Positions 83 to 63,701 of a stretch of 64,000 nt of DNA are shown in pieces. Numbering within the stretch: position 1 is the stretch's first letter; every line of letters begins with the position of its first letter. The notes beneath the pieces were generated by a model, which saw only the letters and a list, made by a program, of their open reading frames with translations, searched no databases and was not told the DNA's origin. The DNA is from Thermoanaerobaculia bacterium (GTDB lineage Bacteria > Acidobacteriota > Thermoanaerobaculia > UBA5066). Location: the NCBI GenBank assembly GCA_963719225.1, contig CAVRAY010000001.1:1184001-1248000 (forward strand), given 5' to 3'. Both the position numbers and the translations under genes were made by a program.

Positions 83-2443
83 GTGCAGCTCCCGGTTCAT
101 TCCCCGCCGCCCGAGGGCGAGATCGATCCCGTCTGCGGGATGACGGTGGATCCCGCGCGCGCCGCGGCGAAGGTCGAGCACGGCGGCAAGACCTGGTACT
201 TCTGCTCGAAGGGCTGCGCGGAAAGATTCCGGAAAGAGCCAGAGAGATCTTCTTCACCCCCTTCACTTTCTAAGAAATCTCCCGGTTCTCTCTGGACCTG
301 CCCGATGCATCCCGAGATCGTCAGGGAAAAGCCCGGAGCCTGCCCGATCTGCGGAATGGCTCTGGAGCCGTTGATGCCGACCGCCGCCGGCGGGGAGGAG
401 GAGAACCCGGAGCTTCGGGACATGTCGCGACGGTTCTGGGTGAGCCTCGGACTGACGATCCCGCTCTTTCTCTTCGAGATGGGCTCGATGGTGTCGCCCA
501 CGCTGCGGGACGCGCTGCCGTCGCGCCTGAACCTGCTCGTCCAGCTTGCTCTCGCGACACCCGTCGTCCTCTGGGGCGGGTGGCCGTTCTTCGAGAGAGG
601 CTGGGCCTCTCTTCGCACGCGAAACCTCAACATGTTCACCCTCATCGCCCTGGGAACGGGCGCGGCATACCTGTACAGCCTTGCCAGGACGGCACAAACC
701 CTCTTCACCTTTCAAAGAAACTTTGCAGACCATGACATGAGCCACGCCGCGACCGGCGTTGGCGCGCTCCACGATGTCTATTTCGAAGCCGCGGCCGGCA
801 TCACGACCCTCGTCCTGCTCGGGCAGGTGCTCGAGCTGAGAGCGCGTGCGCGAACCTCGGGGGCGATCCGGGCGCTGCTGGGCCTCGCGCCGAAGACGGC
901 GCGCGTCGTCCGCCCCGACGGCCGCGAAGAAGACGTGCCGCTCGAAAACGTGGCCGTCGGAGACCGGCTGCGCGTGAGGCCGGGCGAAAAGGTGCCCGTG
1001 GACGGGCTCGTGCTCGAGGGCGCGAGCGCGGTGGACGAGTCGATGATCACGGGCGAGCCGGTGCCGGTGGAGAAGACGAGGGGGAGCACCGTGACGGGCG
1101 GCACGCTCAACAGCGTCGGCGGCATCGTGATGAAGGCCGAGCGCGTGGGCCGGGACACGCTCCTCGCGCAGATCGTGAGACTGGTCGGCGAGGCGCAACG
1201 GAGCCGCGCGCCCATCCAGCGGCTCGCGGACGCGGTCGCCACCTGGTTCGTGCCCGCCGTCGTCCTCGTCTCCGTCCTGACGTTCGCCGCCTGGGCCGTG
1301 TTCGGCCCGCAGCCGCGTTTCGCGCACGCGCTCGTGAACGCCGTCGCCGTCCTCATCATCGCCTGCCCGTGCGCGCTCGGGCTCGCGACGCCGATGTCGA
1401 TCATGGTCGGAACCGGGCGCGGCGCGCAGGCCGGCATTCTCGTGAAGAACGCCGAAGCGCTCGAAAAGCTCGAGAAGGTGAACACGCTCGTCGTGGACAA
1501 GACGGGCACGCTGACGGAAGGGAAGCCGAGAGTGGAGAAGATTCGCGCCTTCGGCGCGTTCGACGAAAAGGAATTGTTGCGCATGGCCGCCTCGCTGGAG
1601 CGCGCGAGCGAACACCCCCTCGCGGCCGCGGTCACGGCCGCCGCCGAGGCAGCCGGTCTTACTCTTTCACCTTCGAAGGAATTCTCTTCGATCCCCGGGA
1701 AGGGCATTGCCGGAAAGGTGGACGGCCGGCCGGTCCTGCTGGGGTCTCTTCCCCTATTCGAAGAAGATTCTCTTTCTTCTTCCTTTCCCAGCGACCTCCT
1801 CGCCGAAGCAGACGCGGAGCGCGCGCAGGGTCACACGGTCCTCTTCGTGGCCGTGGACGGCAAGCCGGCGGGGTTCCTCTCGGCCGCCGATCCGATCAAG
1901 GGATCCGCGGCCGCCGCCATCGCCGAGATGCATCGCCTGGGAGTCCGCGTGGTGATGCTGACGGGCGACGCGAAGGCCACGGCCGAGAGCGTCGGCCGGG
2001 CGCTCGGAATCGACGAAGTCGTCGCGGGTGTGCTGCCGACGGCGAAGGCCGAAGCGGTGGCGCGCCTCAAGGGCGAGGGCAGGATCGTCGCGATGGCGGG
2101 CGACGGCGTGAACGACGCGCCGGCGCTCGCCGCTTCGGACGTGGGCATCGCGATGGGAACGGGGACGGACGTCGCGATCGAGAGCGCGGACGTGACGCTC
2201 CTCAAAGGCGACCTCTCCGGCCTCGTCAAGGCGCGGCGACTCTCGGAGGCGACGATGAGGAACATCCGGCAGAACCTCGTCTTCGCGTTCGTGTACAACG
2301 TGATCGGCATCCCGATCGCGGCGGGATTGCTCTACCCGTTCTTCGGGCTTCTCCTGTCCCCCGTCATCGCGAGCGCCGCGATGACGTTGAGCTCGGTCTC
2401 GGTGATCACGAACGCGCTCCGTCTCCGGCGCGTCGCGCTCTGA
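83..2443 (+). CDS. copA: Cu(I)/Ag(I)-translocating P1B-type ATPase with N-terminal YHS and CPMHP heavy-metal-binding domains
   Basis: DPVCGM..YFCSKGC (YHS), CPMHP..CPICGM, TGE, CPC in TM, DKTGT phosphorylation site, [14 protein letters not shown] and MxxSS Cu(I) ligands. Confidence 0.95.
260..284 (+). repeat. Dispersed CTAAG motif copy (in copA, encodes SLSKKS)
   Basis: ccttcacttt-CTAAG-aaatctcccg. Confidence 0.85.
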
Positions 2444-2480
2444 AACGCCGGGGTCGTAGAATCCGTGCCGGGAGCACTCC

Positions 2481-2732
2481 ATGCCTCTTCTGGAATATCG
2501 ATGTTCGGACTGCGGAAAGAAGACCGAGGACCTCGTCCTCGCGGGAGACACGGCGCGGCCGCCGAGGTGCTCGTCGTGCGGCTCGAAGAAGGTCTCGCGC
2601 CTGCTCTCGACGTTCGCGGCTCCGACGTCGTCTCCTTCCACGGGCGGCTTCGACGCGGCGACCGCCTGCGGCGGCGGCCCCTGCAGCATGCCCGAGGCCT
2701 GTGGCGCGGGCCGCGGATTCGACGAGAACTGA
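2481..2732 (+). CDS. FmdB-family zinc-ribbon protein
   Basis: MPLLEYRCSDCG...CSSCGS..VSRLLS signature; Cys/Gly-rich tail; GGAG RBS. Confidence 0.85.
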   Translation: MPLLEYRCSDCGKKTEDLVLAGDTARPPRCSSCGSKKVSRLLSTFAAPTSSPSTGGFDAATACGGGPCSMPEACGAGRGFDEN

Positions 2733-2816
2733 GGGTTCCCGAGCTTCGCGTACCTGAGGCATCTGAATCACGCGGAATGCGCTCGCCCGTCGTCCTTTGC
2801 GTGTTAGCGTTTTCGA

Positions 2817-3080
2817 ATGGAAATCCTCGCCTCGCCGCGCGCGCCCGTCTTCGGACACGACCTGCTTTCCCTTCTTCAGCAAATGGGAGGGAAAGCGAGC
2901 GTCGAGGCCCTCCAGAACGCGGCGTCCGGCGCTTTCGGCGCGGGCGCGGTATACGGGAACTGCCACGGCGACCGCTTCTCGTTCCACGAGGTGCTCGCTT
3001 TCCTCGCGTCGCGCGGCAAGCTCGAGCGTCGCGGGGACGAGGTCTTCCTCGGGTCTGAGCCTGCCTGCTCCGGCCACTGA
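2817..3080 (+). CDS. YecH/DUF2492-like small metal-binding protein
   Basis: GHDLL, FG..A.Y.NCH, L..FL..RGKL and C-terminal CSGH resemble the YecH family. Confidence 0.7.
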   Translation: MEILASPRAPVFGHDLLSLLQQMGGKASVEALQNAASGAFGAGAVYGNCHGDRFSFHEVLAFLASRGKLERRGDEVFLGSEPACSGH

Positions 3081-3119
3081 AGACACCAAGAGGCGGGACT
3101 CTCCGACGATCCCAGGGAC

Positions 3120-3169: not shown

Positions 3170-3191
3170 GTGCGTTTTCGGGAAAGGATCC

Positions 3192-4352: not shown

Positions 4353-4360
4353 ATTCCGGG

Positions 4361-6161: not shown

Positions 6162-7108
6162 GCCGCGACCTCCTCCCGCGATCTCCTCTGCTTGCGCGCA
6201 AGCGAAACGAAGACGTCTTCCAGGGACGGCTCGGCCGGCTCCGGCGGCGCGAAACGGGCGAGCAGGTTTCGCGCTTCGTCGATGGAGCCGGGCTTCGCGA
6301 CGGCGCGAAGCCGCGCGCCGAAGAGGTAGGCGTCCTCGAGAGAGGCATCCTTCTGCACTTCCTCGAGCGCCACGAACGGGTCCGAGGGCGGCGTGACCTG
6401 CACGATCCGGTCCGCGAGGTCGCGCTTGAGGTCGGGTGGAGCGCCCTCCGCGATGATCGCGCCGTCGAGGATGAACGCGAGCTCGTCGCACTGCTCGGCT
6501 TCGTCCATGTAATGCGTCGTGACGAGGACCGTCATGCTCTTCTCCGCCGCGAGCTCGTAGATCAGGTCCCAGAAGAGCCGCCGTCCTCGCGGATCGACGC
6601 CTCCCGTCGGCTCGTCCAGGAACAGGAGCTCCGGCTCGTGGAGAAGCGCGGCCGCCAGCGCGACGCGCTGGCGATAGCCCGTGGAGAGTCCTTCCGTGAG
6701 GGCCGGCAGGAGCTTCGCGAAGCGGAGCCGTTCCGACAGCTCCTTGATGCGGTCGGCGAGGCGGTCCTTCGGAAGGCCGTAGATCGATCCGAAGAACGTC
6801 AGGTTCTCCTCGGCCGTAAGGTCCAGGTAGAGCGAGAACTTCTGGCTCATGTACCCGAGATGCGTCTTCCACGTGTCGGTGTCGCGCGCGACGTCGAGCG
6901 TGCGACCCTTCGGCTGCATCGTCGCGCGGCCCTCGGAGGGCTTGAGGAGCCCCGCGAGCATCCGGATCGTCGTGGATTTTCCCGAGCCGTTCGGGCCGAG
7001 GAAGCCGAAGACCTTCCCGCGGGGAACCTCGAACGAGACGTGGTCGACGGCGACGAAATTGCCGAACTTCCGCGTGAGGTTCTCGCAGCTGAGGAGGATG
7101 TCACTCAT
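6158..7108 (-). CDS. ABC transporter ATP-binding protein (YbhF C-half-like)
   Basis: GPNGSGKST, GYMSQKFSLY, LFLDEPTGGVDP, TTHYMDEAE. Confidence 0.92.
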   Translation of the reverse strand: MSDILLSCENLTRKFGNFVAVDHVSFEVPRGKVFGFLGPNGSGKSTTIRMLAGLLKPSEGRATMQPKGRTLDVARDTDTWKTHLGYMSQKFSLYLDLTAEENLTFFGSIYGLPKDRLADRIKELSERLRFAKLLPALTEGLSTGYRQRVALAAALLHEPELLFLDEPTGGVDPRGRRLFWDLIYELAAEKSMTVLVTTHYMDEAEQCDELAFILDGAIIAEGAPPDLKRDLADRIVQVTPPSDPFVALEEVQKDASLEDAYLFGARLRAVAKPGSIDEARNLLARFAPPEPAEPSLEDVFVSLARKQRRSREEVAA

Positions 7109-8001
7109 CCCTCGGCCTCGCTGAACAGGACGAACGCGTCCTCGAGGCTGGGCTCTACGCGCCGGATGTCCTCTGCCGGGACGAGACCCGCGAGCGCCTC
7201 GCGCAATTCACCTTCTAAGAAATCCCCCGTCTTCCCTTTATCTTCTCTTCCCCTCACGTGCAGCCTCGTCCCGAAGAGCGAGACGTCGTCGACCTCCTGC
7301 ACTCCCTCGAGGCGCTTCTTGACCTCGAGCCGCTTCGACGAGCGGATCTCGACGAGCGGCCGCGGATACGAGGCGAGGATCTCTTCGCGCGTGCCGAGGG
7401 CGGAAAGCCGTCCGTGATCCAGGAACGCGAGATGCGTGGCGTACTCCGCCTCGTCCATGTAGGGCGTCGAAACGACGATCGTCAGGCCTTCGTGGTGCAG
7501 CCGGTTCAGGAGCAGCCAGAACTCGCGGCGCGACACCGGGTCGACGCCGGTCGTGGGCTCGTCGAGGAGAAGGAGAGGCGGCTGCGTCATGAGCGCCGAG
7601 ACGAGCGAGAGCTTCTGCCTCATGCCTCCCGAAAGCGCTCCCGCGAGACGCTTCCCGAACCGGTCGAGGCCGACGCGCTGCAGGAGGTCCTTCGCGCGCT
7701 TCGCGGCGACGTCGTCGGGGATCTCGTAGAGCCGCGCCCTGAGGGAGAGGTTCTCGTCGATCGAGAGGTCCTCGTAAAGGCTGAAGCGCTGCGGCACGAA
7801 GCCGAACGCGACGTTTTCCGCGATGCGGACGGTGCCCGCGGTCGGCTTGAGAAGGCCGGCGACGATGCGGAACAACGTCGACTTGCCGGCGCCGTCGGGC
7901 CCGATGAGCGCGAAGAGCTCGCCCTTGTCGATCTCGAGGTCGATTCCCCTGAGGGCCTCGACCTTTTCGAACTTCCGGGCGACGCCCCGGATCTCGATCA
8001 C
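7105..8001 (-). CDS. ABC transporter ATP-binding protein (YbhF N-half-like)
   Basis: GTG start at 8001 overlapping hlyD stop; GPDGAGKST, LSGGMRQK, LLLDEPTTGVDP, STPYMDEAE. Confidence 0.92.
   Translation of the reverse strand: MIEIRGVARKFEKVEALRGIDLEIDKGELFALIGPDGAGKSTLFRIVAGLLKPTAGTVRIAENVAFGFVPQRFSLYEDLSIDENLSLRARLYEIPDDVAAKRAKDLLQRVGLDRFGKRLAGALSGGMRQKLSLVSALMTQPPLLLLDEPTTGVDPVSRREFWLLLNRLHHEGLTIVVSTPYMDEAEYATHLAFLDHGRLSALGTREEILASYPRPLVEIRSSKRLEVKKRLEGVQEVDDVSLFGTRLHVRGREDKGKTGDFLEGELREALAGLVPAEDIRRVEPSLEDAFVLFSEAEG
7205..7229 (+). repeat. Dispersed CTAAG motif copy (antisense in ABC ATPase, GDFLEGE)
   Basis: aattcacctt-CTAAG-aaatcccccg. Confidence 0.85.
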
Positions 8002-8993
8002 GGGCCGACCTTGACGCTCACTTCCGCGGGCTGCCCCGGGACGAGCGGCACGTTCCACCCCGCGTCGAGGTCCACCTTCGCGGCGTAGACCTGGTTCACG
8101 CGCTCCTCGCGCGTCTCGACCGGCTTCGGCGTGAACTCCGCGTCGGGGGAGATCTCCGTGACGTGCGCCGGGAAGGACTTGCCGGGGAACGAATCCACGG
8201 TGACGGTCGCGGGGAGCGATGTCCTCACCACGCCGAGCTTGGTCTCGGGGATGTAGGTCCGCACGTAGAGACGTCCCGTGAACGCCATCGTCAGCGCGGG
8301 CTGGGACGGCGAGAGCAGGAGGCCCGGCTCGGCCATGCGGTGGAGGACGACGCCGTCCGCGGGTGCGCGGATTTCCGCCTCTCCGGCGGTCGTCTCGGAC
8401 TGCTTGAGGACCGTGCGCGCCCGGTCCACGTCGCGCCGCGCCTGTTCCTTCTGCCACGAGCGCGTGCCTTCGCGGAGGAGGCCGAGTTTTTCTTCGCTCA
8501 TCTTGAGATTGGCCTCCGCGCGATCGAGATTCGCGCGCGCAACGTCCACGTCTCGAGGAGATCCCACTTTCTTAGAAAGTAATATCTGCTGGCGCTCGAG
8601 CTCCGGCTTCGCGAGATCCAGAGCGGCGCGACGGTCCGCGACTTCCTGCTCCGCAGCCTTGATTTCCGACCCCCGGCTTCCCGCTTCCAGGTCCTGGTAC
8701 CGCGCCTGGCTGGATTCCAGGCCGCGGCGATCGCGCTCGACGGCGAGCGCCATCTCGCCGAGGTCGAGCTTCACGAGGAGGTCGCCGGCCTTCACGCGAT
8801 CCCCTTCCTTCACCTTGACCTCGACGACGCGCCCGGCGACCTTCGGCGCGAGGTCCACGGTGGGTGCTTCGAGACGCCCGCTCAGCTTGACGAAGTTCGG
8901 GTCCTGCTTCGGCCGGCATGCGGCAATGACGATTGCCGAGGCCGCGAGTCCGGCGATCGCGACGGCCGGGAAGAAACGAGACGTCCTGCGCAT
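7998..8993 (-). CDS. HlyD/YbhG-like membrane fusion protein, probable lipoprotein
   Basis: IAAC lipobox; GRV..V.VKEGDRVKAGD lipoyl half, coiled coil, AEFTPK.VET.EER. Confidence 0.9.
   Translation of the reverse strand: MRRTSRFFPAVAIAGLAASAIVIAACRPKQDPNFVKLSGRLEAPTVDLAPKVAGRVVEVKVKEGDRVKAGDLLVKLDLGEMALAVERDRRGLESSQARYQDLEAGSRGSEIKAAEQEVADRRAALDLAKPELERQQILLSKKVGSPRDVDVARANLDRAEANLKMSEEKLGLLREGTRSWQKEQARRDVDRARTVLKQSETTAGEAEIRAPADGVVLHRMAEPGLLLSPSQPALTMAFTGRLYVRTYIPETKLGVVRTSLPATVTVDSFPGKSFPAHVTEISPDAEFTPKPVETREERVNQVYAAKVDLDAGWNVPLVPGQPAEVSVKVGP
8561..8585 (-). repeat. Dispersed CTAAG motif copy (in hlyD, LLSKKV); 15-bp palindrome ACTTTCT-W-AGAAAGT
   Basis: minus strand atattacttt-CTAAG-aaagtgggat. 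Confidence 0.85.
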
Positions 8994-9005: not shown

Positions 9006-12000
9006 CTACAGTTCCGCGGGCGCGGGCGCGAGGGTCTGGTCCGCGGCCGGCTGCGCGCCGGGCTGCTTGCGCAGCCGCCGGACCGCGCGGCCGATCGCCT
9101 GCTGCGCGTCGTCGAAGAGCGAGTAGGCGACGGGCGTCGCGAGGAGCGTGAGGAGGAGCGCGAGCGTCTGGCCGCCCACGATGACCGACCCGATCGCGCG
9201 GTTCGTGCCCGCGCCCGGCCCGGAGGAGACGAGAAGCGGCAGCATGCCGGCCACGAAGGCGAGAGTCGTCATGAGGATGGGGCGGAGGCGCTCGCGGCTC
9301 GCGAGGATGACCGCCGCGTCGCGCTCCATGCCGCGTTCGCGAAGCTGGTTCGCGAACTCGACCTGGAGAATCGAGTTCTTCTTCACGACTCCGAACAAAA
9401 CGAGGATGCCGAGCGACGTGAAGATGTTCAGCGACTGGCCGGCGATGAGAATCGAGAGGAGCGCGAACGGCACCGTGAGCGGAAGAGCGAGGAGGATCGT
9501 GATCGGATGGAGCCAGCTCTCGAACTGGGCCGCGAGGATGAGGTACATGAAGATGAACGACAGCGCGAACGCCAGGAGGAAGTTCTGCGCGGCACGGCCC
9601 TGCTCCTTCGAGCGGCCGATGAAGCGATACGTGAAGGAGGGGTCGAGGTTCATCGCCTTCGCCTCCTTCGCGAGGAGATCGATCGCGACCTGAGACGAGA
9701 AGCCCGGGTTCATGTTCGCGAGGATCGTGACCTGGCGCCGGCGGTTCAGGCGCTTGATCTCCGACGGGCCCGTGCCCGCGCGGAAGGACGTCACGTCCTC
9801 GAGCGGGACCGCACCGAGGCGGTTCGACGGCACGTTGAAGCGGCGGAGGCTCGCCTCGTCGGTGCGGTCGCCCGGCCGGGCGCGGAGGTACACGTCGTAC
9901 TGCTCGCCCCCGTCGTCGAAAGCGGAGACTTTCTCGCCGCCCACGAGGACGCGGAGGGTCTCGGAGACGTCCGCCACCGAGACGCCGAGGTCCGACGCTT
10001 TCGAGCGGGCGACGGTCACGCCGAGCTCGGGCTTGCCGAAGATGAGCGACGAGTCCACGTCCACGATGCCGGGGACCTGCGAGAGCTTCTTCATGAGCGT
10101 GTCGGAGACGGCCGCGAGCCGCGTGAGGTCCGGCCCGTTCACGACGAACATGATCTCGGCGTTCTTCTGCCCGCCCGAGAAGGCGTTCACGTACGACACG
10201 TCCGAGCGCAGCCTGGAGTCCTCGAAGTGCGGGAGGATCTGCTTGCGCACGCGGTCCATGACGGTCGTCTGCGCGTCCTTGCGCCTGTGGACGTCCACGA
10301 GCTTCACGTAGATGCTTCCGACGTTCGGGGTCTTCGCGTCGTCGGCGCCCACCGTCAGAAGCGTGTATTCGACGCCGGCGAGCGCCTTGACCTCCTTGGA
10401 GATGCGGTTCCCGATGAGGGCCGTCGCTTCGAGCGACGTTCCCTCCGGCGCGCGGAAGTTCACCTCGAACTGCGACTCGTCGTCGTAGGGCAGGAAATTC
10501 TTCGGGACGAACTTGAAGAGGACCGGTACGGCGAGAAGGGCGACGACGCACGCGAGGACGACCGCCCAGCGCCGCGCCATGGACCACGTGAGCATCGACG
10601 TGTACGCCCGGTCGATGTGCCGATAGAAGCCTCGCGACTTCGTTGAAGAGCTCTCCGACGACGCGCCGCCCTCGCCCAGGCTCTCTCTCCTTCTAAGCAA
10701 ATCTTCTTTCTTCTCTTCTTTTCTCTTCAACAACCTGGCCGACAACATGGGCGTCAGCGAGAAGGACACGAGGAGCGAGACGAGGATTGCGAAGGCCATC
10801 GTGAGGCCGAACGAGTTCATGAACCGCCCGACGATGCCGCCCATGAAGGCGACGGGAAGGAAGACGGCCACGAGCGAGAGCGTCGTCGCGAGGACGGCGA
10901 GGCCGATCTCCTTCGTCGCGTCGATCGCGGCCTGGAAAGGCATGACCTTCTTCTCCTCGATGAACCGGAAGATGTTCTCGAGAACGACGATGGCGTCGTC
11001 GATGACGATGCCGACGGCGAGCGTGAGCGCGAGGAGCGTCAGGACGTTGAGCGTGAAGCCCATCGCGTACATGAGGGCGTACGTGGAGATGATCGACGTC
11101 GGAATCGCGATCGCCGCGATGAGGGTCGACCGGAGGTTGCCGAGGAAGAGGAGCACGACGAGCGCCGCGAGGAAACCGCCGAGAACGAGGTGCTCCTGGA
11201 CGGTCGAGACGGCGGCCTTGATGAACTGCGACTGGTCGCGGACGATCTCGGTCGTGTAGCCGGCCGGGAGCTGCGGAGCGATCTCGGCGAGGCGGCCCTT
11301 GATCGCATCGATGACCTGGACCGTGTTCGTGCCCGACTGCTTGCGGACCGACAGGACGACCGTGGGAACTCCGTCCTTGCTCGCGGCGCGCTCGGCGTCC
11401 TCTTCGCTGTCCTCCACGGTCGCGACGTCGCCGATCCGCACCGGCAGCCCGCTCCGCTGCGTGATGAAGATCGCCTCGAACTCCTTCGCGTTCGCCACGC
11501 GTCCGTAGACGCGGACGGTCGCCTCGTTCGCGCCGCTCTTGAGCGTGCCGCCCGGGAGCTTCACGTTCTGCGTCTGGAGAGCGCGGCGGACGTCGACGGC
11601 GGAAAGGCCGTAGGCCTTGAGGCGCTCGGTGTCGAGGCGCACGTTGATGCGGCGCGACCGGCCGCCGAGGATCGTGACCTGCCCGACTCCGTTGACGGAC
11701 TCGAGCTGGCGGCGCAGGACCTTGTCGGCGAACTCGGTCGTCTCGCGGAGGGTCCGGTTTCCCGAGAGAGCCACGGAGAGGACCGGCGTGGCGTCGGGAT
11801 CGAGCTTCTCCACGATGGGCTGGTCGATGTCGCGCGGGAGCTCGGCGAGGACGCGGTTCACCTTGTCGCGCACTTCCTGAGCGGCGACGTCGACGTTCTT
11901 CTCGAGGATGAACGTGACGAAGACCTGCGAGATGCCCTCGGCGGAGACCGACTGGAGGTCGTCGATGCCCGCGATCGTGTTGATCGACTCCTCGATCTTG

Positions 12001-12197
12001 TCGGTGACCTCCGTTTCGACCTCCTCCGGAGCCGCTCCGGGAAGGCGGGTGATGACGGCGACCGTGGGGAAGTCGACGCGCGGATACCGGTCCACTCCGA
12101 GGCGCGTGTAGCCGACGCCTCCGACGACGACGAGCGCGATGATGATCACCGACGCGAAAACGGGCCGGCGAACGCAAAGACGGGCGAGTGCCTGCAC
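9006..12197 (-). CDS. RND efflux transporter permease (AcrB/MdtB family)
   Basis: RRPVFA start, GIVIDDAIVVLENI, KNSIL, RLRPILMTT; 1063 aa. Confidence 0.95.
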   Translation of the reverse strand: MQALARLCVRRPVFASVIIIALVVVGGVGYTRLGVDRYPRVDFPTVAVITRLPGAAPEEVETEVTDKIEESINTIAGIDDLQSVSAEGISQVFVTFILEKNVDVAAQEVRDKVNRVLAELPRDIDQPIVEKLDPDATPVLSVALSGNRTLRETTEFADKVLRRQLESVNGVGQVTILGGRSRRINVRLDTERLKAYGLSAVDVRRALQTQNVKLPGGTLKSGANEATVRVYGRVANAKEFEAIFITQRSGLPVRIGDVATVEDSEEDAERAASKDGVPTVVLSVRKQSGTNTVQVIDAIKGRLAEIAPQLPAGYTTEIVRDQSQFIKAAVSTVQEHLVLGGFLAALVVLLFLGNLRSTLIAAIAIPTSIISTYALMYAMGFTLNVLTLLALTLAVGIVIDDAIVVLENIFRFIEEKKVMPFQAAIDATKEIGLAVLATTLSLVAVFLPVAFMGGIVGRFMNSFGLTMAFAILVSLLVSFSLTPMLSARLLKRKEEKKEDLLRRRESLGEGGASSESSSTKSRGFYRHIDRAYTSMLTWSMARRWAVVLACVVALLAVPVLFKFVPKNFLPYDDESQFEVNFRAPEGTSLEATALIGNRISKEVKALAGVEYTLLTVGADDAKTPNVGSIYVKLVDVHRRKDAQTTVMDRVRKQILPHFEDSRLRSDVSYVNAFSGGQKNAEIMFVVNGPDLTRLAAVSDTLMKKLSQVPGIVDVDSSLIFGKPELGVTVARSKASDLGVSVADVSETLRVLVGGEKVSAFDDGGEQYDVYLRARPGDRTDEASLRRFNVPSNRLGAVPLEDVTSFRAGTGPSEIKRLNRRRQVTILANMNPGFSSQVAIDLLAKEAKAMNLDPSFTYRFIGRSKEQGRAAQNFLLAFALSFIFMYLILAAQFESWLHPITILLALPLTVPFALLSILIAGQSLNIFTSLGILVLFGVVKKNSILQVEFANQLRERGMERDAAVILASRERLRPILMTTLAFVAGMLPLLVSSGPGAGTNRAIGSVIVGGQTLALLLTLLATPVAYSLFDDAQQAIGRAVRRLRKQPGAQPAADQTLAPAPAEL
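10683..10707 (+). repeat. Dispersed CTAAG motif copy (antisense in RND gene, EDLLRRRES)
   Basis: ctctctcctt-CTAAG-caaatcttct. Confidence 0.8.
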
Positions 12198-15242: not shown

Positions 15243-15378
15243 TCGATGTGGACTTTCGTCAGCCCTGGAGGAAGTGTTTCTGAGAAGGGAGTTTAGAAGC
15301 GGGCGGGGGCGGCGCCGGAAGGTGCGGCGTGGCTCGATTCGATGCTGATTTATCGACACGTTGAACCCTCGCGTTCCC

Positions 15379-15403
15379 TCTTCCCCTTCTAAGAAGAATC
15401 CAC
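15379..15403 (+). repeat. Dispersed CTAAG motif copy (intergenic)
   Basis: tcttcccctt-CTAAG-aagaatccac; degenerate inverted partner (CTCAG core) at 15280. Confidence 0.8.
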
Positions 15404-15455
15404 CATGACCGACGCTCCGCCAATGCATGAAGCGCACGGGAGCAAGAATCTCTCC

Positions 15456-18184: not shown

Positions 18185-19306
18185 ATGCGGATCGCAGTTG
18201 CGATGTCAGGGGGCGTGGACTCGTCGGTCGCGGCCCTCCTTCTCCGCCGCGAAGGCGCCGACGTGGTGGGTCTGTCGATGCACCTCTGGAATCACGACCG
18301 CGACGGGTCGGGGGCGAACACGGGCCGCTGCTGCACGCTCGACGACCTGTCCGTCGCGCGACGCGCGGCCGAGGCGATCGGCGTGCCCCACTTCGTCCTG
18401 AACCTCGAGCAGCGCTTCACGGAAGCGGTCGTGAAGCCGTTCGTGGAGAGCTATCTCGAGGGGAGGACGCCGATCCCGTGCACGGTCTGCAACACGGAGG
18501 TGAAATTCAAGACCCTCCTTCAGAAGGCCTCTGCCCTCGACTGCCAGGCCGTCGCCACGGGGCACTACGCGCGCATCGGAAGGGACGACGTCACGGGAGC
18601 CCCGCGCCTCCTGCGAGCGCGCGACCGCGCCCGCGACCAGTCCTACTTCCTCTACGACCTCACGGAAGAGCAGCTCTCACGCGCCCGCTTCCCGCTGGGA
18701 GAGCTGACGAAGCCCGAGGTGAGAGAAATCGCGCGAGAGGCGGGGCTGCCGAACTGGGACAAGCCCGATTCTCAGGAGGTCTGCTTCGTGCCGAACGGAA
18801 TGACGCCGGCGGACTTCATCCGGCTCGAGGCCGGACGTCTCGGCCTCGAGCTGCCGGCTTTCGCGGGCGCGAAGCGCGGGGAGATTTTCTTAGAAGGTGG
18901 AGAGAGAGTAGGAGCGCACGAAGGGACGATGGCCTATACCGTGGGCCAGAGAAAGGGGATCGGCGTCGCCGCGAAGGAGCCCCTGTACGTGATCGCAACC
19001 AACCCTGAAGAGAGCCGCGTCGTCGTAGGGCCGGCCCCCGCTCTCCTTTCTAAGAAAGTCTTCCTGGAGCGCGTGAGTGTGCGCTTGGCTGGAGGCGTGA
19101 GGTCGCCCGTTTCCGTGCTTGCCCGCATCCGCTCCCGCCATCCCGAGCAGGCCGCCTGCCTGACGCTCTCTGAGGGCGGTCGCGGCTCTCTCGACTTCGA
19201 GGAGCCCGTGTGCGCCGCGGCTCCCGGCCAGTCGGCGGTCTTCTACGACGTGGGCCGACCCGAGGTCGTCCTCGGCGGCGGCGTCATCTCTCGGCCCGCG
19301 GCCTGA
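18185..19306 (+). CDS. mnmA: tRNA 2-thiouridine(34) synthase, CxxC (C-type)
   Basis: AMSGGVDSS PP-loop, TPIPCTVCN, ATGHYA, DQSYFL, DSQEVCF, YTVGQRKG, PGQSAVFY. Confidence 0.96.
   Translation: MRIAVAMSGGVDSSVAALLLRREGADVVGLSMHLWNHDRDGSGANTGRCCTLDDLSVARRAAEAIGVPHFVLNLEQRFTEAVVKPFVESYLEGRTPIPCTVCNTEVKFKTLLQKASALDCQAVATGHYARIGRDDVTGAPRLLRARDRARDQSYFLYDLTEEQLSRARFPLGELTKPEVREIAREAGLPNWDKPDSQEVCFVPNGMTPADFIRLEAGRLGLELPAFAGAKRGEIFLEGGERVGAHEGTMAYTVGQRKGIGVAAKEPLYVIATNPEESRVVVGPAPALLSKKVFLERVSVRLAGGVRSPVSVLARIRSRHPEQAACLTLSEGGRGSLDFEEPVCAAAPGQSAVFYDVGRPEVVLGGGVISRPAA
18879..18903 (-). repeat. Dispersed CTAAG motif copy (antisense in mnmA, EIFLEGG)
   Basis: minus strand tctccacctt-CTAAG-aaaatctccc. 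Confidence 0.85.
19040..19064 (+). repeat. Dispersed CTAAG motif copy (in mnmA, LLSKKV)
   Basis: gctctccttt-CTAAG-aaagtcttcc. Confidence 0.85.
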
Positions 19307-27607: not shown

Positions 27608-28129
27608 CCGCGCCCGCCTGACGGCCTCCCGCGAGAGCTGCCGGGCCTCGGAGAGGAGCCGCGCCACCGTCTTTCCGGTTCCGGGCACCACGCGCCGCGG
27701 CGCGACGTCCGCGAGCGGGACGAGGACGAAGAGACGGCTCGTCATCCGCGGGTGCGGAACGGTCAGGCGCCGCGTCGCGATCCGCTCGTTTCCATAGAGG
27801 AGGAGGTCGAGGTCGAGGGGGCGAGGCGCGTTTCGAGGCCCGCCCGGCTTTCGGCCGGCAGAGATTTCGGATTTTCTTAGATGGGTGAGGAGGGCCTGCG
27901 CAGAGAGCGAGGTCGTTCCGACGATGACGGCATTGAGGTAGTCGGGCTGATCGGATGGGCCTCCGACCGGCGAGGTGCCATAGAGAAGAGATATTTTAGG
28001 ATTTCTTAGAAAGGGAGAGAGGCTTCGGAGCGCGTTGCGGAAGGCGCGACGGGTGTTGCCGACGTTGCCGCCCACGCCGATGGCCACGAAGACGGGCCTG
28101 GGGCGCGCCAGGGCTCTTTTCACCTTCAT
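27599..28129 (-). CDS. folK: 2-amino-4-hydroxy-6-hydroxymethyldihydropteridine diphosphokinase
   Basis: IGVGGNVG, QPDYLNAV, PRPLDLDLLLY, LTVPHPRM..R.FVLVPL. Confidence 0.93.
   Translation of the reverse strand: MKVKRALARPRPVFVAIGVGGNVGNTRRAFRNALRSLSPFLRNPKISLLYGTSPVGGPSDQPDYLNAVIVGTTSLSAQALLTHLRKSEISAGRKPGGPRNAPRPLDLDLLLYGNERIATRRLTVPHPRMTSRLFVLVPLADVAPRRVVPGTGKTVARLLSEARQLSREAVRRARSF
27866..27890 (-). repeat. Dispersed CTAAG motif copy (in folK, THLRKS)
   Basis: minus strand cctcacccat-CTAAG-aaaatccgaa. Confidence 0.8.
27995..28019 (-). repeat. Dispersed CTAAG motif copy (in folK, SPFLRNP)
   Basis: minus strand ctctcccttt-CTAAG-aaatcctaaa. Confidence 0.85.
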
Positions 28130-28190
28130 CCACGTCCCCGCCTCGCGGCTCGGCCGCGGCACGTACCTACGATCCTCGCCTGCGGCTCGG

Positions 28191-28215
28191 CTCTTCGGTT
28201 CTAAGAAAATCTTCC
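28191..28215 (+). repeat. Dispersed CTAAG motif copy (intergenic)
   Basis: ctcttcggtt-CTAAG-aaaatcttcc. Confidence 0.8.
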
Positions 28216-28261
28216 GAGCGGTTTACCGAAGCGCGACTCGCCGCGCGCATCGCTCCTGCGC

Positions 28262-38574: not shown

Positions 38575-39390
38575 GTGCTGGTGGTCTTCACGGACCTGGA
38601 CGGGACTCTCCTCGAGGAGGACGGTTCGCTCTCCGAGGACGCGCGTGCGGCCGTGGGCGCCCTTTCGGCCGCGGGGATTCCCGTCGTTCCGCTCACGAGC
38701 AAAACGCGGCTCGAGCTCGAGAGCTGGATCGCGGTCCTCGATGCCGGAGGCGCCGGGGCTTTCGAGAACGGCGCGGGGATTCTGACGTCGGGAGATACGA
38801 AGACGGTGATTCCGGGGACAGGAGAACGGGAGATTCTTAGAAGGAGAGAGACCGAAGTCCTGCCCGCTGCGGTCGCCGTTGGCGAGCTGCGCCTCGCCCT
38901 CGATGCGCTTCGCCGGCACACGGGCCTTTCCCTCTTCTCCTTCGAAGAAATCCCCGACGCCGAGTGGGTACGCCTCACCGGCCTCCCGCTCGACGACGCG
39001 GGCGCGGCGCGTGCGCGGGAGTTCGATCTTCCGTTCATCGTCTCCGACGGCGACGCCTCCGCGGTCTTGTCCGCGCCGCTTCCGCCGCGCGTTCGACTGG
39101 TTCGCGGCGGGCGCTTCTGGCACCTCTCGGGCCTCCACGACAAGGCAGACGCCGCGCGAAGACTTCTCGAGCTCCTCCGCCCGTCCCGGACGATCGGGCT
39201 CGGCGACGCGCCGAACGACGCCGCGTTCCTTCGGATCATGGATCATCCCGTCCTCGTCCCGAAGAAGGCGGGAGTCGACGAAACGTTGCGCGCCGCCCTT
39301 CCCCGCGCTGGCGTCGCGCCGGCCCCCGGAGGCGCGGGCTGGAGCGCGGCCGTGCGCGCTCTCGTTCCCGCGGAAAGGATGGGTGCGTGA
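38575..39390 (+). CDS. Mannosyl/glucosyl-3-phosphoglycerate phosphatase (HAD IIB, MpgP/GpgP)
   Basis: AGGAGG RBS then GTG; FTDLDGTLL, TSKT, ENGA, REF..PF, GGRFWHL, DK, GLGDAPND. Confidence 0.85.
   Translation: MLVVFTDLDGTLLEEDGSLSEDARAAVGALSAAGIPVVPLTSKTRLELESWIAVLDAGGAGAFENGAGILTSGDTKTVIPGTGEREILRRRETEVLPAAVAVGELRLALDALRRHTGLSLFSFEEIPDAEWVRLTGLPLDDAGAARAREFDLPFIVSDGDASAVLSAPLPPRVRLVRGGRFWHLSGLHDKADAARRLLELLRPSRTIGLGDAPNDAAFLRIMDHPVLVPKKAGVDETLRAALPRAGVAPAPGGAGWSAAVRALVPAERMGA
38826..38850 (-). repeat. Dispersed CTAAG motif copy (antisense in phosphatase, EILRRRE)
   Basis: minus strand ctctctcctt-CTAAG-aatctcccgt. Confidence 0.85.
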
Positions 39391-48179: not shown

Positions 48180-48183
48180 CGGC

Positions 48184-48852: not shown

Positions 48853-48861
48853 GGGAAAGCC

Positions 48862-49527
48862 ATGGCGACGCTCGACCTCAAACAGCTCGAAGGGAAGCCC
48901 TGGTACTACGGGCTGGGTATCGGCCTGGGCGTCGCCCTCGCGCTCTACGCCGCCGCCTACTACCAGCTTCCGAACTTCAGCGAGATGAAGCAGACGCTGG
49001 AGAACAAGAAGAACGAGCTCGACCAGCTGAACCAGAAGATCACGCAGGGCCGCGCCGCCGAGCGCCGCCTGCCGCAGCTGCGGGAGGAAGTCCGCCGGAC
49101 CGAGCTCGATCTGCAGCGGCTTCTTCAGATCCTTCCGACGGCGCGCAACGCCGAGGAGCTCATCAAGAAGATCCAGGCGCTCGCGGGACAAGGTGAGTTC
49201 TTCCTCAAGAAGTGGACGCCGAAGGAGTACATCAACAGGGACTTCTACGCGGAGTGGCCCATCGACCTCCAGATCGACGGGACCTACCACAATCTCGCGC
49301 TTTTCTTCGAGAAGGTGGCGCGGTTCTCCCGGATCATCAATATCGAGGATCTGGTCATGACCGGCTATCCGGACGCGGCCGGAGGCCGCACGCTCGGGGC
49401 GACGTTCTCGATGAAGACATTCATTTATCTCGGCGACACGGAGGCGGCGACGCCTGCGGCGGCCGGGCCGAAGAAGGCGGCTCCTCCCCCCGGCGCCAAG
49501 AAGAAAGCCGCAGGGCTCGAGGGATGA
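48862..49527 (+). CDS. pilO: Type IV pilus assembly protein PilO
   Basis: TM, coiled coil, LP, FYAEWPI...GTYH.L..FF.KV....RIINI. Confidence 0.92.
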   Translation: MATLDLKQLEGKPWYYGLGIGLGVALALYAAAYYQLPNFSEMKQTLENKKNELDQLNQKITQGRAAERRLPQLREEVRRTELDLQRLLQILPTARNAEELIKKIQALAGQGEFFLKKWTPKEYINRDFYAEWPIDLQIDGTYHNLALFFEKVARFSRIINIEDLVMTGYPDAAGGRTLGATFSMKTFIYLGDTEAATPAAAGPKKAAPPPGAKKKAAGLEG

Positions 49528-50048
49528 GCGCGCGTCGTCTCCTCGCCGCGATCGCACTGCCGGCCTTGCTCCTGGCAGCGCCTGCGCCGTCGCGCGCCCA
49601 GGCCCCGCCCGCCACCTCGGCCGCTCCGGCTCCCGCGACCGCTGCGGCTGCCGCTCCTGCTCCGGGAGCTCCGGGCAAGGTCACCGAGCAGGATTTCACC
49701 CCGTCCGTCTACACGTACGAGGTTGCCGGACGGCGGGACCCCTTCCGCTCGCTGCTCGTGCGAAACCCGTCGGACAAGGATCGTGTGCGCCCGCCGGGCC
49801 TCGCGGGGGTCATGGTGGACGAGCTCGAGCTCCAGGGCACGATCAAGGTCAAGCAGGGCTGGGTCGCGATGATGCGCGGCCCGGACAACAAATCGCACCT
49901 CGTCCGCAAAGGGACGACGCTCTTCGACGGCGAGGTCATCGAAGTGTCGGCAACGGAAGTGACGTTCCGTCAGAACGTGAACGATCCGACGAACCCCAAG
50001 CCTTTCCGGGAAGTGGTCAAGGCGCTCTCACTCCATAAGAAGTCGTGA
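49524..50048 (+). CDS. pilP: PilP-like pilus assembly protein (no lipobox)
   Basis: Y....RRDPF.SL, L.L.G.I....W.A....PD.K.H.V..G..G.V..V; position between pilO and pilQ. Confidence 0.8.
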   Translation: MSARRLLAAIALPALLLAAPAPSRAQAPPATSAAPAPATAAAAAPAPGAPGKVTEQDFTPSVYTYEVAGRRDPFRSLLVRNPSDKDRVRPPGLAGVMVDELELQGTIKVKQGWVAMMRGPDNKSHLVRKGTTLFDGEVIEVSATEVTFRQNVNDPTNPKPFREVVKALSLHKKS

Positions 50049-50134
50049 CCGAAGGGATGTCCATGACGACGAAGCTGATGGGCACTAGGAACTCGAAGGG
50101 CACGGGAGACCTCGTGCCGTCCGGGGGAGGAAGC

Positions 50135-59687: not shown

Positions 59688-59688
59688 C

Positions 59689-60447: not shown

Positions 60448-60464
60448 TCCGGCCGGCGGACCCG

Positions 60465-62567
60465 ATGCGCAGCCTCCGCCTTCGTGCCCCCGCTGCCTTC
60501 GTCGCCTCCGCCGTCCTCGCGGGCTGTGTCACGTTCGGTTCCGAGAAGGGACCGCCGAAAGGCACGTATCGCGAGCGCCTGATCGGGTACGCCGCTCTTC
60601 TGCGAATGGAGGACCGCCGCGCATACGATCCGCTGCTGTCGGGACGCACGGCAGCCTCTCCGGATCCCTGGCTGCGCGCCAAGACCGCGCTCGCGGTCTC
60701 CCGCCTGAAGGATACGGACGCATCCGTGTACCTGCCCGTGCTCCTGAAGGACCCAGAGGCCTCCGTGCGCCGCGCCGCCACGTTCGGAGCCGGGCTTTCG
60801 GGTGACGCCCGCCTTCTGCACTTCCTCGTTGCGGCGCTGGGCGATCCCGATGACCAGACCGCCGCGAATGCCGCCGAGGCTCTCGGGAAAATTGGCGGAA
60901 AAGACGCCACGGACGCCCTGCTCGCCGCTCTTGCAAAGCCCAGGGGCCCGCGGGCGGGGTGCGCGCTCGCGCTGTTTCGGAAGCCCGAGGCGCGAAGTGT
61001 CACGGCGTTGCTCGCCGCGTTCGGAGAAGAGGATTCTGCTCCCGAGCTCGGGCGCGCGGTCGTCTATTCACTGTCACGAAAACCAGATCCCGCGGCAGTT
61101 CCGGCGCTTCGCGCGGTGCTTAGAAGGGAAGAAGAAGGGGCGTCCCGCACGCCCGCGAGCGAGGAAGTCGCCTGGGCGGCGCGAGGTCTTGGGATCCTCG
61201 AGGATGAGGAGAGCGTCCCCGACCTCGTCCGCCTCGCGGCCAGCCGCGACATCTCGGTTGCCGTTCAGGCCCTGACCGCGCTCCATTCACTTTCTAACAA
61301 AAGTGTCTTTTCCCTTCGCGAGGAATTGACTCGCGGCGCACGGGAAATTGCTCTTCTCCGAGCAAACGATTCCCTTCCCGGAGTGGCCATCGCCGCTTTG
61401 CGCCTCCTCGGAGCGTTGCCCGACTCCCCCGCGTCGCGTGCGACGCTCGAAGAGAACCTGCTCAAGAAGGGGTGGAGAGGACAGGCGGCCCTCGTGTCTC
61501 TGACGCACCTCGACGCGGCTCGGTCGCCGGAGGCCGCTGCGGCCCGGATCGACGCGGCGGCCCTTCTCGGCGGCACCCTCGAGCTGCGACTCGGTGCCGC
61601 CGAGGCCCTGCAGTTCTTCGGAGGCGATGGTCCGCCGAAGGTTCTCGCGACGGCCCTCCTCGCCGACCGTGCCGCGCGCGTGCGCGCATCCGCCCTTTCC
61701 TCCGTTTCGAAGAAGCAATCTCCGCATCTCTCTTCCTGGCTGCTCGCCGGCTTGATCGATCACGACGCTGCGGTGCGCGATGCCGCACTCGACGCAGGGG
61801 CGCCCCTCCTCGAGAAGGGAAGCGCGGAGCTGAAGCGCGCATGGATGGCCGCGTTCGATCGCGCTTTCGAGTCCGGCGAGCCGGATTTCACCGTCGGCGC
61901 CCTCGATGCCGCGGCGGCCCGCGGCGAGGCCGGACGCGTCCTCGTGGCTGCGCACGCGAACGACCCGGACGCCGTCACGCGCGAGAAGGCGCGGCGGCTC
62001 CTCGTCGAGAAATACGGGGCCGCCAACGGCTCGTTTCGGCCGATCCCGGCCGGAACGCGGCTTTCGACCGAGGATTACGCGCGCGTCTCCCGCGCCGCGA
62101 ACGAGTCTGTTTTCGAGGCGGAGATCGCCACGGCCCGCGGCCCGATCCGGATGGAGCTTCTCGCCGAGGACGCGCCCCTCACGGTCGAGAGCTTTCGCAC
62201 GCTCGCCGCGAAGGGCTTCTTCGACGGAATGGTGATTCACCGAGTCGTGCCGGACTTCGTCGTCCAGACCGGCGACCCGCGCGGAGACGGAAGCGGCGGA
62301 CCTGGTTACGCCATCCGGGACGAGATCAACCCGGCCCGGTACACGCGCGGCGCCGTCGGAATGGCCCTCTCCGGCGCCGATACGGGCGGCTCGCAATGGT
62401 TCGTCACGCTTTCCACGCAGCTCCACCTCGACGGCGGCTACACCGTGTTCGGGCGCGTTCTCGAGGGGTGGGACGTCCTCGATCGCATCGAGCAGGACGA
62501 CCGGCTCGTGTCCGTGCGCGTGACGTCCCATCCGCGTTCGGCCCGTCCGCCCGGAGCCGTGCCGTGA
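60465..62567 (+). CDS. HEAT-repeat lipoprotein fused to a cyclophilin-type peptidylprolyl isomerase
   Basis: LAGC lipobox; HEAT repeats; AP.TV..F, HRVVPDFVVQTGDP.GDGSGGPG, DTGGSQWF, HLDGGYTVFG.V. Confidence 0.9.
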   Translation: MRSLRLRAPAAFVASAVLAGCVTFGSEKGPPKGTYRERLIGYAALLRMEDRRAYDPLLSGRTAASPDPWLRAKTALAVSRLKDTDASVYLPVLLKDPEASVRRAATFGAGLSGDARLLHFLVAALGDPDDQTAANAAEALGKIGGKDATDALLAALAKPRGPRAGCALALFRKPEARSVTALLAAFGEEDSAPELGRAVVYSLSRKPDPAAVPALRAVLRREEEGASRTPASEEVAWAARGLGILEDEESVPDLVRLAASRDISVAVQALTALHSLSNKSVFSLREELTRGAREIALLRANDSLPGVAIAALRLLGALPDSPASRATLEENLLKKGWRGQAALVSLTHLDAARSPEAAAARIDAAALLGGTLELRLGAAEALQFFGGDGPPKVLATALLADRAARVRASALSSVSKKQSPHLSSWLLAGLIDHDAAVRDAALDAGAPLLEKGSAELKRAWMAAFDRAFESGEPDFTVGALDAAAARGEAGRVLVAAHANDPDAVTREKARRLLVEKYGAANGSFRPIPAGTRLSTEDYARVSRAANESVFEAEIATARGPIRMELLAEDAPLTVESFRTLAAKGFFDGMVIHRVVPDFVVQTGDPRGDGSGGPGYAIRDEINPARYTRGAVGMALSGADTGGSQWFVTLSTQLHLDGGYTVFGRVLEGWDVLDRIEQDDRLVSVRVTSHPRSARPPGAVP
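61109..61133 (-). repeat. Dispersed CTAAG motif copy (antisense in HEAT-PPIase, VLRREEE)
   Basis: minus strand ttcttccctt-CTAAG-caccgcgcga; degenerate + partner cattcacttt-CTAAC-aaaagtgtc at 61294. Confidence 0.7.
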
Positions 62568-62737
62568 AATTCGCCGTCGGGCGAAGCCTGCAGCTCGTCG
62601 GGCTCGTGCTCGTGGGTCTGGGTCTCGTCATCGGGCTCCTGAGGAACGACCTGAGGTTCGAGGAGCGGATGTTCTTCGCCGGCGGCGCCGTCTTCTTCGC
62701 GGGCTGGCTGCTCGTGCGACCGTTCAAGGCTCCATGA
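62564..62737 (+). CDS. Small two-TM membrane protein
   Basis: GTG start overlapping upstream stop, ATGA overlap downstream; GRSLQLVGL..., two hydrophobic helices. Confidence 0.7.
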   Translation: MKFAVGRSLQLVGLVLVGLGLVIGLLRNDLRFEERMFFAGGAVFFAGWLLVRPFKAP

Positions 62738-63645
62738 AAGTGTTCGTCGGCCGACCCCTCGTCGAGCCGTCCACGACCGAGCTTCTTGCGGGGCATACCG
62801 TCGTCACGGGAGACGGGAACCTCCCGCGGTCCGAGTGGCCGCTCCTGTCGGACGCCGACGCACTCCTTCCGACGCCGCGCGAGCGGATCACGGACGAGCT
62901 CCTCGCGGCCTCTCCGCGGACCCGGATCGTGGCGAGCCACTCGGTCGGGGTCGACCACATCGATCTCGAGGCGTGCCGCCGGCGCGGCATCCTCGTCACC
63001 AACACGCCGGACGTCCTCACCGAGGCGACGGCGGACCTCGCCTGGGCGCTGATCCTGGCGGTCGCGCGGCGGCTGGGCGAGGGCGAGGCGCTCGCGCGCT
63101 CGGGGACGTGGGACGGCTGGAAACCCCGGGAGCTTCTCGGCATCTCCCTCTCCGGGCGCACGCTGGGCATCTACGGCATGGGCCGTATCGGGCGGGCGGT
63201 GGCGAGGCGCGGCGAGGCGTTCGGAATGGCGGTCGTGGCCTTCGGCAGGAGTCGGAGTGAAAAGGACCTGGAAGAATTCCTTTCGAATGTGGATGTGCTG
63301 TCGATCCACACGCCTTTGACCGAGGAGACGCGCGGAAGGTTCGGAGAGAAAGAGATCCTTCGAATGAAAGAGGGGGCGATCCTCATCAACACCGCGCGGG
63401 GCCCGATCGTGGACGAGGAGGCACTCGTCGCGGCCCTTCGTTCGAGGCATCTTCTGGGCGCGGGTCTCGACGTCTACGAAAAAGAGCCCGCAATCCATCC
63501 CGGGCTGGTCTCGCTGCCGAACGTCGTTCTCCTCCCGCATCTCGGCTCGGCCACGTTCGAGACGCGCCTCGCCATGGCGCGCCTCGCGTGCGAGGAGATC
63601 GCGCGCTTCGCGCGCGGCGAGCCGCCGCTGCACCCGGTTCCGTAG
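62734..63645 (+). CDS. D-glycerate dehydrogenase / glyoxylate reductase (D-2-hydroxyacid dehydrogenase)
   Basis: VG.DHID, NTPDVLTEATAD, GMGRIG, INTARG, GLDVYE.EP, PHLGSAT. Confidence 0.93.
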   Translation: MKVFVGRPLVEPSTTELLAGHTVVTGDGNLPRSEWPLLSDADALLPTPRERITDELLAASPRTRIVASHSVGVDHIDLEACRRRGILVTNTPDVLTEATADLAWALILAVARRLGEGEALARSGTWDGWKPRELLGISLSGRTLGIYGMGRIGRAVARRGEAFGMAVVAFGRSRSEKDLEEFLSNVDVLSIHTPLTEETRGRFGEKEILRMKEGAILINTARGPIVDEEALVAALRSRHLLGAGLDVYEKEPAIHPGLVSLPNVVLLPHLGSATFETRLAMARLACEEIARFARGEPPLHPVP

Positions 63646-63676
63646 GCCCGGAGCTTCGCTCGCGAGCGCCTCGCTC

Positions 63677-63701
63677 ATTCACCCCTCTAAGAAAATCTTC
63701 T
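63677..63701 (+). repeat. Dispersed CTAAG motif copy (between convergent genes)
   Basis: attcacccct-CTAAG-aaaatcttct. Confidence 0.85.

Follow-up and report, generated by a model that had tools for sequence, protein, structure and literature searches.

The window analysed here, a stretch of 64,000 nucleotides (G000:C1:1184001-1248000), belongs to a genome (G000) of 4.75 Mb in two contigs (C1 and C2) with a GC content of 68%, 97% complete and 6% contaminated; a purpose-built dicodon model called 3,902 genes in it, some with wrong starts, at 89% coding. Scattered through the genes of the window, which include those for a copper P-type ATPase, a resistance-nodulation-division (RND) permease, MnmA and FolK, as well as through the gaps between them, are copies of a DNA word, TTCTWAGAA in its exact form, that proves to be the centre of a longer, polar motif. 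This feature is real, conserved and lineage-specific in an uncultured acidobacterial genus. Sites were scored with a position weight matrix (PWM) seeded on the exact sites and applied to the sites from which it was built; the genome-wide set comprises about 770 sites at 18 bits or more and the strong set used for pairing 718 sites at 20 bits or more, and an empirical null gave no match of at least 16 bits in 387 kb of the motif-free genome G071.

A sequence-only reading of the window had listed 13 clear cores, ten of them inside genes, and eight degenerate copies. All 13 cores lie at the positions and on the strands given, and the ten within genes fall in the coding frames of eight genes, where cores encode the peptides LSKK, FLEG, LRRR/LRRE and HLRK/FLRN as described; the copy at 61119, however, is weak rather than clear, at 8 bits, and a strong copy at 38943(+) had been overlooked. 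Seven of the degenerate copies stand, with scores of 18-33 bits, but that at 50035 does not, at -10 bits. Four pairs of sites in the window exceed both thresholds applied below, and three further pairs have a weak or distant partner (Table 1).

Table 1. Motif sites in the window (window coordinates; N, base at the variable core position +1)
Feature	Range	Strand	Context
Single site, core 270, 40 bits	257..296	+	N-terminal part of copper P-type ATPase open reading frame 83-2443; reads LSKK
Single site, core 713, N=A, 26 bits	700..739	+	Copper ATPase gene
Two same-strand sites, cores 1674 and 1759, N=G, 28 and 32 bits	1661..1785	+	Copper ATPase gene
Single site, core 7215, 41 bits	7202..7241	+	ABC ATPase gene 7105-8001(-); reads FLEG
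Weak site, core 8571, 16 bits	8549..8588	-	HlyD-type gene 7998-8993(-)
Single site, core 10693, 41 bits	10680..10719	+	Loop of RND permease gene 9006-12149(-)
Back-to-back pair, 15280(-) 20 bits and 15389(+) 30 bits, spacing 109	15258..15415	both	Intergenic
Pair, 18889(-) 36 bits and 19050(+) 25 bits, spacing 161	18867..19076	both	Inside mnmA 18203-19306(+)
Site, core 27876, 24 bits	27854..27893	-	folK 27599-28129(-); nearest 5' inverted partner 28201, 325 bp off
Pair, 28005(-) 39 bits and 28201(+) 14 bits, spacing 196	27983..28227	both	First site in folK, second upstream of folK
Pair, 38836(-) 31 bits and 38943(+) 29 bits, spacing 107	38814..38969	both	HAD phosphatase gene 38575-39390(+)
Pair with weak left arm, 61119(-) 8 bits and 61294(+) 33 bits, spacing 175	61097..61320	both	Gene 60465-62567(+)
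Single site, core 61708, 18 bits	61695..61734	+	
Wide pair, 63358(-) 21 bits and 63687(+) 31 bits, spacing 329	63336..63713	both	First site in 2-hydroxyacid dehydrogenase gene, second just past the gene

The nine exact copies of TTCTWAGAA in the window, a number already judged far above chance from the letters alone, compare with a mean of 0.02 and a maximum of 1 in 100 dinucleotide shuffles. Across the genome the 9-mer occurs 273 times, and coding DNA holds 165 copies against 3.5 in a synonymous-codon shuffle and 8.3 under a dicodon null that keeps the amino acids. The top over-represented 9-mers of the genome under an order-4 Markov model come from the motif, and an 8-mer over-representation test recovered it too; the same test gave no AT-rich equivalent word in 155 kb of G071 or G050. 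CTWAG alone is under-represented (341 versus 939). The full site is a polar word of about 45 bp with the core CNTTCNAAGAA and pyrimidine flanks, present in about 770 copies. Its near-invariant bases in the PWM are C(-4), T(-2), T(-1), C(0), A(2), A(3), G(4), A(5) and A(6), whereas core position +1 varies (T 65%, G 19%), which gives the pattern TTC-N-AAG-AA with N = T >> G, A, C. Pyrimidines dominate the 5' flank as far as about -13, while the 3' tail, G-poor and pyrimidine-rich, reaches about +30 to +43. The sequence-only reading was right about the polar flanks but not about a palindromic core: since the second core base is variable, the symmetry of the 9-mer is incidental. With an excess over a codon-preserving shuffle, copies spread beyond the window and a flanking consensus that persists, the observation itself stands. 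Coding sites use all six frames and show no bias towards the sense strand of transcription (264 of 532 sites; 84 of 172 when unpaired). Nor does the full set of sites favour a replication strand (395 of 766 on the leading strand), in agreement with the earlier argument against a replichore-polar signal.

An Rfam search returned no match. The 3' end of the 16S rRNA, considered as a template or guide, was rejected: it is motif-like at 7 bits only and has GG where the sites carry AA, and the rRNA region scanned contains no site. Highly iterated palindrome 1 (HIP1) is an exact short palindrome tied to a methyltransferase, and a methylation- or restriction-linked, or mutation-generated, repeat of that type would suit the nine nearly invariant core bases; the motif, however, is polar, paired and variable at one core base, and its long degenerate flanks are conserved as well without being hypermutable, so that we rank this the least probable of the explanations weighed here.

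Comparison of orthologues indicates that the constraint lies in the DNA, since sites hold both their positions and their rare codons from species to species. Across 300 orthologues shared with G013 (76% amino-acid identity), 68 sites could be aligned and 6 could not; 51 of the 68 persist, with retention of synonymous A/T bases at 70-81% in the cores and 64-75% in the flanks against a background of 11-17%; seven genomes compared over the window region show the same pattern. The second genus of the family keeps 9 of 33 sites (9 unaligned) and G071 keeps 0 of 43 (15 unaligned). Both sites in mnmA recur at identical codon positions in many of the 23 further sequences from the genus, by way of TTA, TCT and CTT, and are absent from six outgroup orthologues (one, G025, unpublished), the spacer between them being ordinary MnmA; orthologues lacking the motif at the same codons are what the sequence-only reading had proposed to look for. 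Contigs of relatives aligned to the mnmA pair revealed no joint at which the strand changes, a result given no weight here. Conservation of core and flank in both orientations and all frames argues for a constraint at the DNA level, by selection or by drive, and the earlier claim of a frame- and strand-independent signal is borne out by the six frames in use and by the conserved synonymous bases.

The lineage-specificity that had been suggested was also upheld. The family sample comprises 63 genomes, 29 in the genus (motif high), 8 in the second genus (low) and 26 without the motif. CNTTCNAAGAAA occurs 135-547 times in all 29 genomes of the genus, where the reversed control gives 0-8, and 7-76 times in all eight of the second genus, with 0-6 copies in the other 26. 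TTCTWAGAA is present in 0-4 copies in sixteen genomes of other families (two, G025 and G030, unpublished). None of 297 genomes outside the genus in a phylum sample, which includes the unpublished G025, G167 and G264, exceeds 49 copies; most are near their own controls, and the largest excess over control there is 45 versus 12. We found no description of the motif in the literature, nor of such sites in Acidobacteriota, within a search whose scope excluded most subscription journals and supplements.

A property that the sequence-only reading had missed is the way in which copies of the motif are paired. An inverted partner of at least 14 bits at 28-400 bp lies on the 5' side of 547 of the 718 strong sites and on the 3' side of 29, and with any partner of at least 0 bits these counts become 625 and 56. 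Read on the plus strand, a pair runs (-) then (+), back-to-back with tails outward, at spacings mostly of 66-350 bp; the whole range of 28-250 bp contains just 6 instances of the reverse order. Spacings below 66 bp are uncommon, the peak is at 66-100 bp (near 75-77 bp), and the number of pairs per 100 bp of spacing falls from 329 at 66-100 bp through 188, 122, 62, 34 and 17 to reach background by about 500 bp (6.8 at 501-1000 bp), with no helical phasing (Rayleigh p>0.14). The same order prevails in G013 (54 (-,+) versus 4 (+,-) pairs in 505 kb) and in G049, of the second genus (6 versus 0). Over 241 million metagenome records, the paired pattern was found at 66 loci, 59 of them at a GC content of at least 60% and 56 with a best match of at least 60% to a G000 protein; 23 matches on viral contigs, all at 31-41% GC, were taken as chance. 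An unbiased k-mer orientation test for analogous pairs in outgroups had too little power to be informative, as it missed even the motif of G000 itself.

Inverted arms invite an explanation by structure in RNA or single-stranded DNA, such as an RNase III stem or a bidirectional terminator, or by a triplex-forming mirror repeat. Any two arms can pair, at about -26 kcal/mol as RNA, and either strand reads a purine arm first and a pyrimidine arm second. Real pairs are nevertheless no stabler than permuted ones (11-25 of 60 permutations are as low in duplex energy), arm-to-arm identity shows no excess over random (p=0.16), perfect inverted runs of at least 16 bp are not in excess (1 versus 3.2) and mirror identity is not consistently raised (z between -2.5 and +2.4). 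Unlike terminators, the pairs are mostly within genes (186 of 315 wholly inside one gene) and are not enriched in convergent gaps, which hold 6 of the 73 intergenic pairs though they make up 17% of intergenic bases. RNase III itself is present in five of five genomes. We consider a structural role highly improbable; the lack of covariation between arms suggests instead that each site is read separately, on double-stranded DNA.

Repetitive extragenic palindromic (REP) sequences and the bacterial interspersed mosaic elements (BIMEs) that they form, miniature inverted-repeat transposable elements (MITEs) and Rickettsia palindromic elements (RPEs) likewise have inverted arms around a spacer, and RPEs also occur inside coding frames. 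Pairs left over as the ends of a miniature mobile element, or of a REP- or RPE-like insertion, would share that anatomy, and might show a spacing peak like the one near 75-77 bp and the insertions seen in proteins: among 23 coding pairs compared with the outgroup G071, some of which have an arm in common, 11 carry 19-45 extra residues. The other 12, as in mnmA, have a net insertion of no more than 8 residues and enclose ancestral coding sequence. The spacers, moreover, are mutually unrelated and of normal GC content, save in one paralogue set with 93-bp spacing, and the arms do not covary, form no excess of perfect inverted repeats and are conserved at synonymous sites. A mobile origin is on this evidence largely refuted already, and we give it very little credence. 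The paralogue set comprises Ser/Thr-kinase-like genes (G000:C1:2293328-2319700 and others) that carry related pairs at the identical spacing of 93 bp.

The motif also has consequences for proteins: a signal at the DNA level replaces residues and accompanies longer loops in essential proteins. Amino-acid identity to the outgroup is 26% at the cores versus 65%, which marks poorly conserved protein positions, and an Ala/Pro linker of relatives has been replaced in the genus by the Ser/Lys runs that the motif encodes. Next to sites, identity falls on the 5' side (0.67 versus 0.75-0.78) but not on the 3' side, a difference that fits weak or decayed partners on the 5' side. Protein insertions and codon bias should be read with such a signal in mind.

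The sites are also unevenly distributed along the chromosome, the second feature absent from the sequence-only reading. The origin of G000 lies on C2, at a dnaA-gyrB-parAB cluster with a single parS at C2:333826, and dif lies at C1:2037575, at the turn of the GC skew; with the contigs in the order C2 then C1, deduced from skew, parS and dif rather than from overlaps, the terminus half holds 564 sites and the origin half 202. Intergenic DNA shows the bias as well (69 versus 23 per 100 kb), as does each of the five coding-score classes, and six of seven control words have no comparable terminus excess, the seventh having only 10 copies. Density is 2.7-fold higher within a domain of about 2 Mb around dif. 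When each cluster is counted as one unit (309 versus 113), a step model places this domain at 1.65-3.65 Mb, with an Akaike information criterion of 418 against 429 for a linear and 510 for a constant model; its centre, 2.65 Mb from the origin, is within 70 kb of dif at 2.58 Mb, and the window sits just inside it. Terminus bias recurs in G055 (59 of 92 sites, p=0.006) and origin depletion in G049 (6 of 76, p=0.003), a site is found within 220 bp of dif in all eight genus genomes examined, and in G019 40 of 67 sites occupy about 1.45 of 3.9 Mb, dense on the contig end that carries dif and on C1.

What might read such sites? Protein binding is the most likely interpretation, and to that extent the sequence-only proposal of a dimeric protein at a palindrome survives; the palindrome does not, the symmetry lying between two separate polar sites. 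By analogy, a domain centred on dif points to chromosome organisation, and we put at about even the chance that the motif is the binding or loading site of a putative, lineage-specific organiser of the terminus domain. Fixed orientation, together with a free, unphased and decaying spacing, suggests a one-sided factor. Such a factor, bound at each site, would act towards the 5' side of the site by sliding, spreading or flexible bridging; a second, inverted site on that side would be stabilised cooperatively, and weak partners would be improved stepwise through point substitution and loop expansion. A role in compaction, in segregation or in the control of SMC or FtsK in the terminus half would be a guess from the matS/MatP system. 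More doubtful, though still worth entertaining, is a true grammar of orientation and distance, in which a directional loader would read hundreds of back-to-back pairs and so structure the terminus half; the two oppositely oriented origin sites at which the origin recognition complex (ORC) loads a double helicase, and the paired CTCF sites that bound a loop, are analogues. If that were so, the sites would be worth the rewriting and lengthening of essential proteins, tRNA synthetases and MnmA among them.

Among the closest known systems is matS, a 13-bp palindrome with 23 copies in the terminus (Ter) region of Escherichia coli that was found in silico before its protein (PMC3116907, PMC4786541). 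Both it and the motif are scattered, enriched at the terminus and non-polar with respect to replication, but the motif is itself polar, about 45 bp long, present in some 770 copies, enriched 2.7-fold over about 2 Mb, and paired.

Several observations weigh against a terminus-domain organiser. Unlike matS, the sites extend beyond the terminus, and the origin half still has roughly a third of the density; in G019, moreover, the sole parS (C2:846494) is only 739 kb from dif (C2:107795), which blurs the distinction between origin and terminus. Measured against G013, arms are lost independently (13 pairs with both kept, 9 with one, 1 with neither; Fisher p=1), and a lone site survives no less often than a paired one (20 of 27 versus 31 of 41). 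These results count against a strict pair model and leave the pair as no more than a possible unit of selection. The genomes compared share ancestry and have inherited sites in common, so that they are not independent replicates and the p-values are overstated. No reader protein was found among the candidates tested: MatP (PF06303) is in 0 of 17 family genomes, with a control match in E. coli, and the histone fold in 0 of 25 genomes. The ParB encoded beside dif was rejected because its recognition helix is essentially the same in motif-free genera, and an extra HU-family protein because it is also present in the motif-free G060 and G061 and missing from G019. The closeness of dif and parS in the 3.9-Mb G019 genome would itself imply either strong replichore asymmetry or misassembly.

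The other branch of the sequence-only reading, DNA uptake, was correct in expecting a lineage-specific signal. An uptake or transfer-bias sequence spread by molecular drive, through an apparatus favouring two inverted sites, would account for the likeness to the uptake signal sequences (USS) and DNA uptake sequences (DUS) described in PMC2817400 and PMC7811141: hundreds of copies on both strands and in all frames, at tolerant protein positions, with a strict core, degenerate polar flanks and a restricted lineage. That arms are lost independently agrees with selection acting on individual sites, low-GC, probably foreign DNA is sparser in sites (6.7-8.5 versus 16-18 per 100 kb), and comEC, comEA, a GspH/FimT-like pilin gene, pilQ and a comM-like gene are present. 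Yet windows above 70% GC are also site-poor (8.7 per 100 kb), motif-free genera hold the competence genes equally, and the density is only about 1 per 6 kb, lower than that of USS or DUS, from which the motif differs in sequence too. The USS of Haemophilus influenzae are relatively evenly spread, 23% of them within 100 bp and 17% within 30 bp of another, and paired copies bring no gain in uptake (PMC7811141); the motif, in contrast, is biased towards the terminus and forms pairs in one orientation (76%), whose members lie 66-350 bp apart instead of forming close hairpins, and loop expansions of 19-45 residues often go with it. These features weaken the uptake reading, and we now think it unlikely.

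Chi, according to PMC5443536, is an 8-nt polar word, lineage-specific, dispersed in genes and skewed to one replication strand. A Chi-like stop for end resection by AddAB would explain the order (-) then (+), which would shield the intervening segment against resection from either end of a linear fragment: directional recognition on a 3'-terminated strand (PMC5443536) agrees with the orientation rule, a flexible, unphased spacing suits a translocating enzyme, and an addAB-like gene pair, recognised by a short motif and size only, lies at C1:1.93-1.94 Mb. The motif, however, is far longer than Chi, is systematically paired at short range and has no replication-strand skew, either in the full set above, in G055 (40 of 89) or among unpaired G000 sites (137 of 242, marginal); 4-fold sites inside pairs, moreover, are conserved at 0.549 against a background of 0.541, no gain. 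Such a role appears improbable. FtsK-orienting polar sequences (KOPS) are polarised towards dif (PMC4786541), and a KOPS-like word in G000 is skewed 505 to 326, whereas the motif has no polarity towards dif. It also differs from parS and Noc-binding sites (NBS), in that the recognition helix of the dif-linked ParB does not track the motif and G000 has a single parS. The motif thus departs in at least one defining respect from every family compared, and its pairing rule matches none of the systems tested; the mechanism behind the rule we infer. Few systems with dispersed functional DNA words are known, and one of them, matS, likewise came to light through counting before its protein did. The motif offers a ready bait for its reader protein, as single or paired sites, correctly oriented or flipped, at variable spacing.

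Several genes near dif and elsewhere bear on the candidates named above. A second parA/parB pair (G000:C1:2037865-2039524) abuts dif and is partition-like and terminus-linked; its ParB, which has another recognition helix than the origin ParB, occurs in 56 of 63 family genomes and adjoins dif at every family dif locus seen. About 14 bases to the right of dif is an imperfect palindrome, roughly GCCTRA-N5-TWMGGC, kept in the genus and more loosely in other genera of the family, which is possibly the site of the dif-linked ParB or of a Xer accessory factor. The extra HU-family gene, between fmt and ftsK (G000:C1:2998748-2999026), is found in 25 of 28 other genus genomes and all eight of the second genus, while 24 further genomes of the family gave no match; its relatives number at least 6,501. 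A partial comparison of gene content, covering about 0.4 Mb per genome, yielded no clear reader candidate, and Terminase_6N, the sole terminase family searched, was found in 0 of 4 motif-bearing genomes, which leaves a packaging drive without support.

Among proteins with helix-hairpin-helix (HhH) domains, a predicted secreted protein with two ComEA-type copies (G000:C1:1007226-1007921) carries the genome's top-scoring site in its linker; as a reader it was rejected, being present in the motif-free G041 as well. An HHH_3 match in a long frame (mostly about 800 residues), which is probably Tex-like, occurs in 12 of 13 motif-free genomes and in 0 of 12 motif-bearing ones, G061 also being without it. 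The comEA gene lies beside the GspH/FimT-like pilin gene (G000:C2:230425-231488), an arrangement conserved across the genera of the family, with a motif pair just upstream in both G000 and G013. Two rho-like genes, identified by a short protein motif only, are at G000:C1:953711 and C1:3852363, and positions 47124-52909 of the window hold a pilMNOPQ-like cluster with the PilQ secretin, downstream of relA/spoT.

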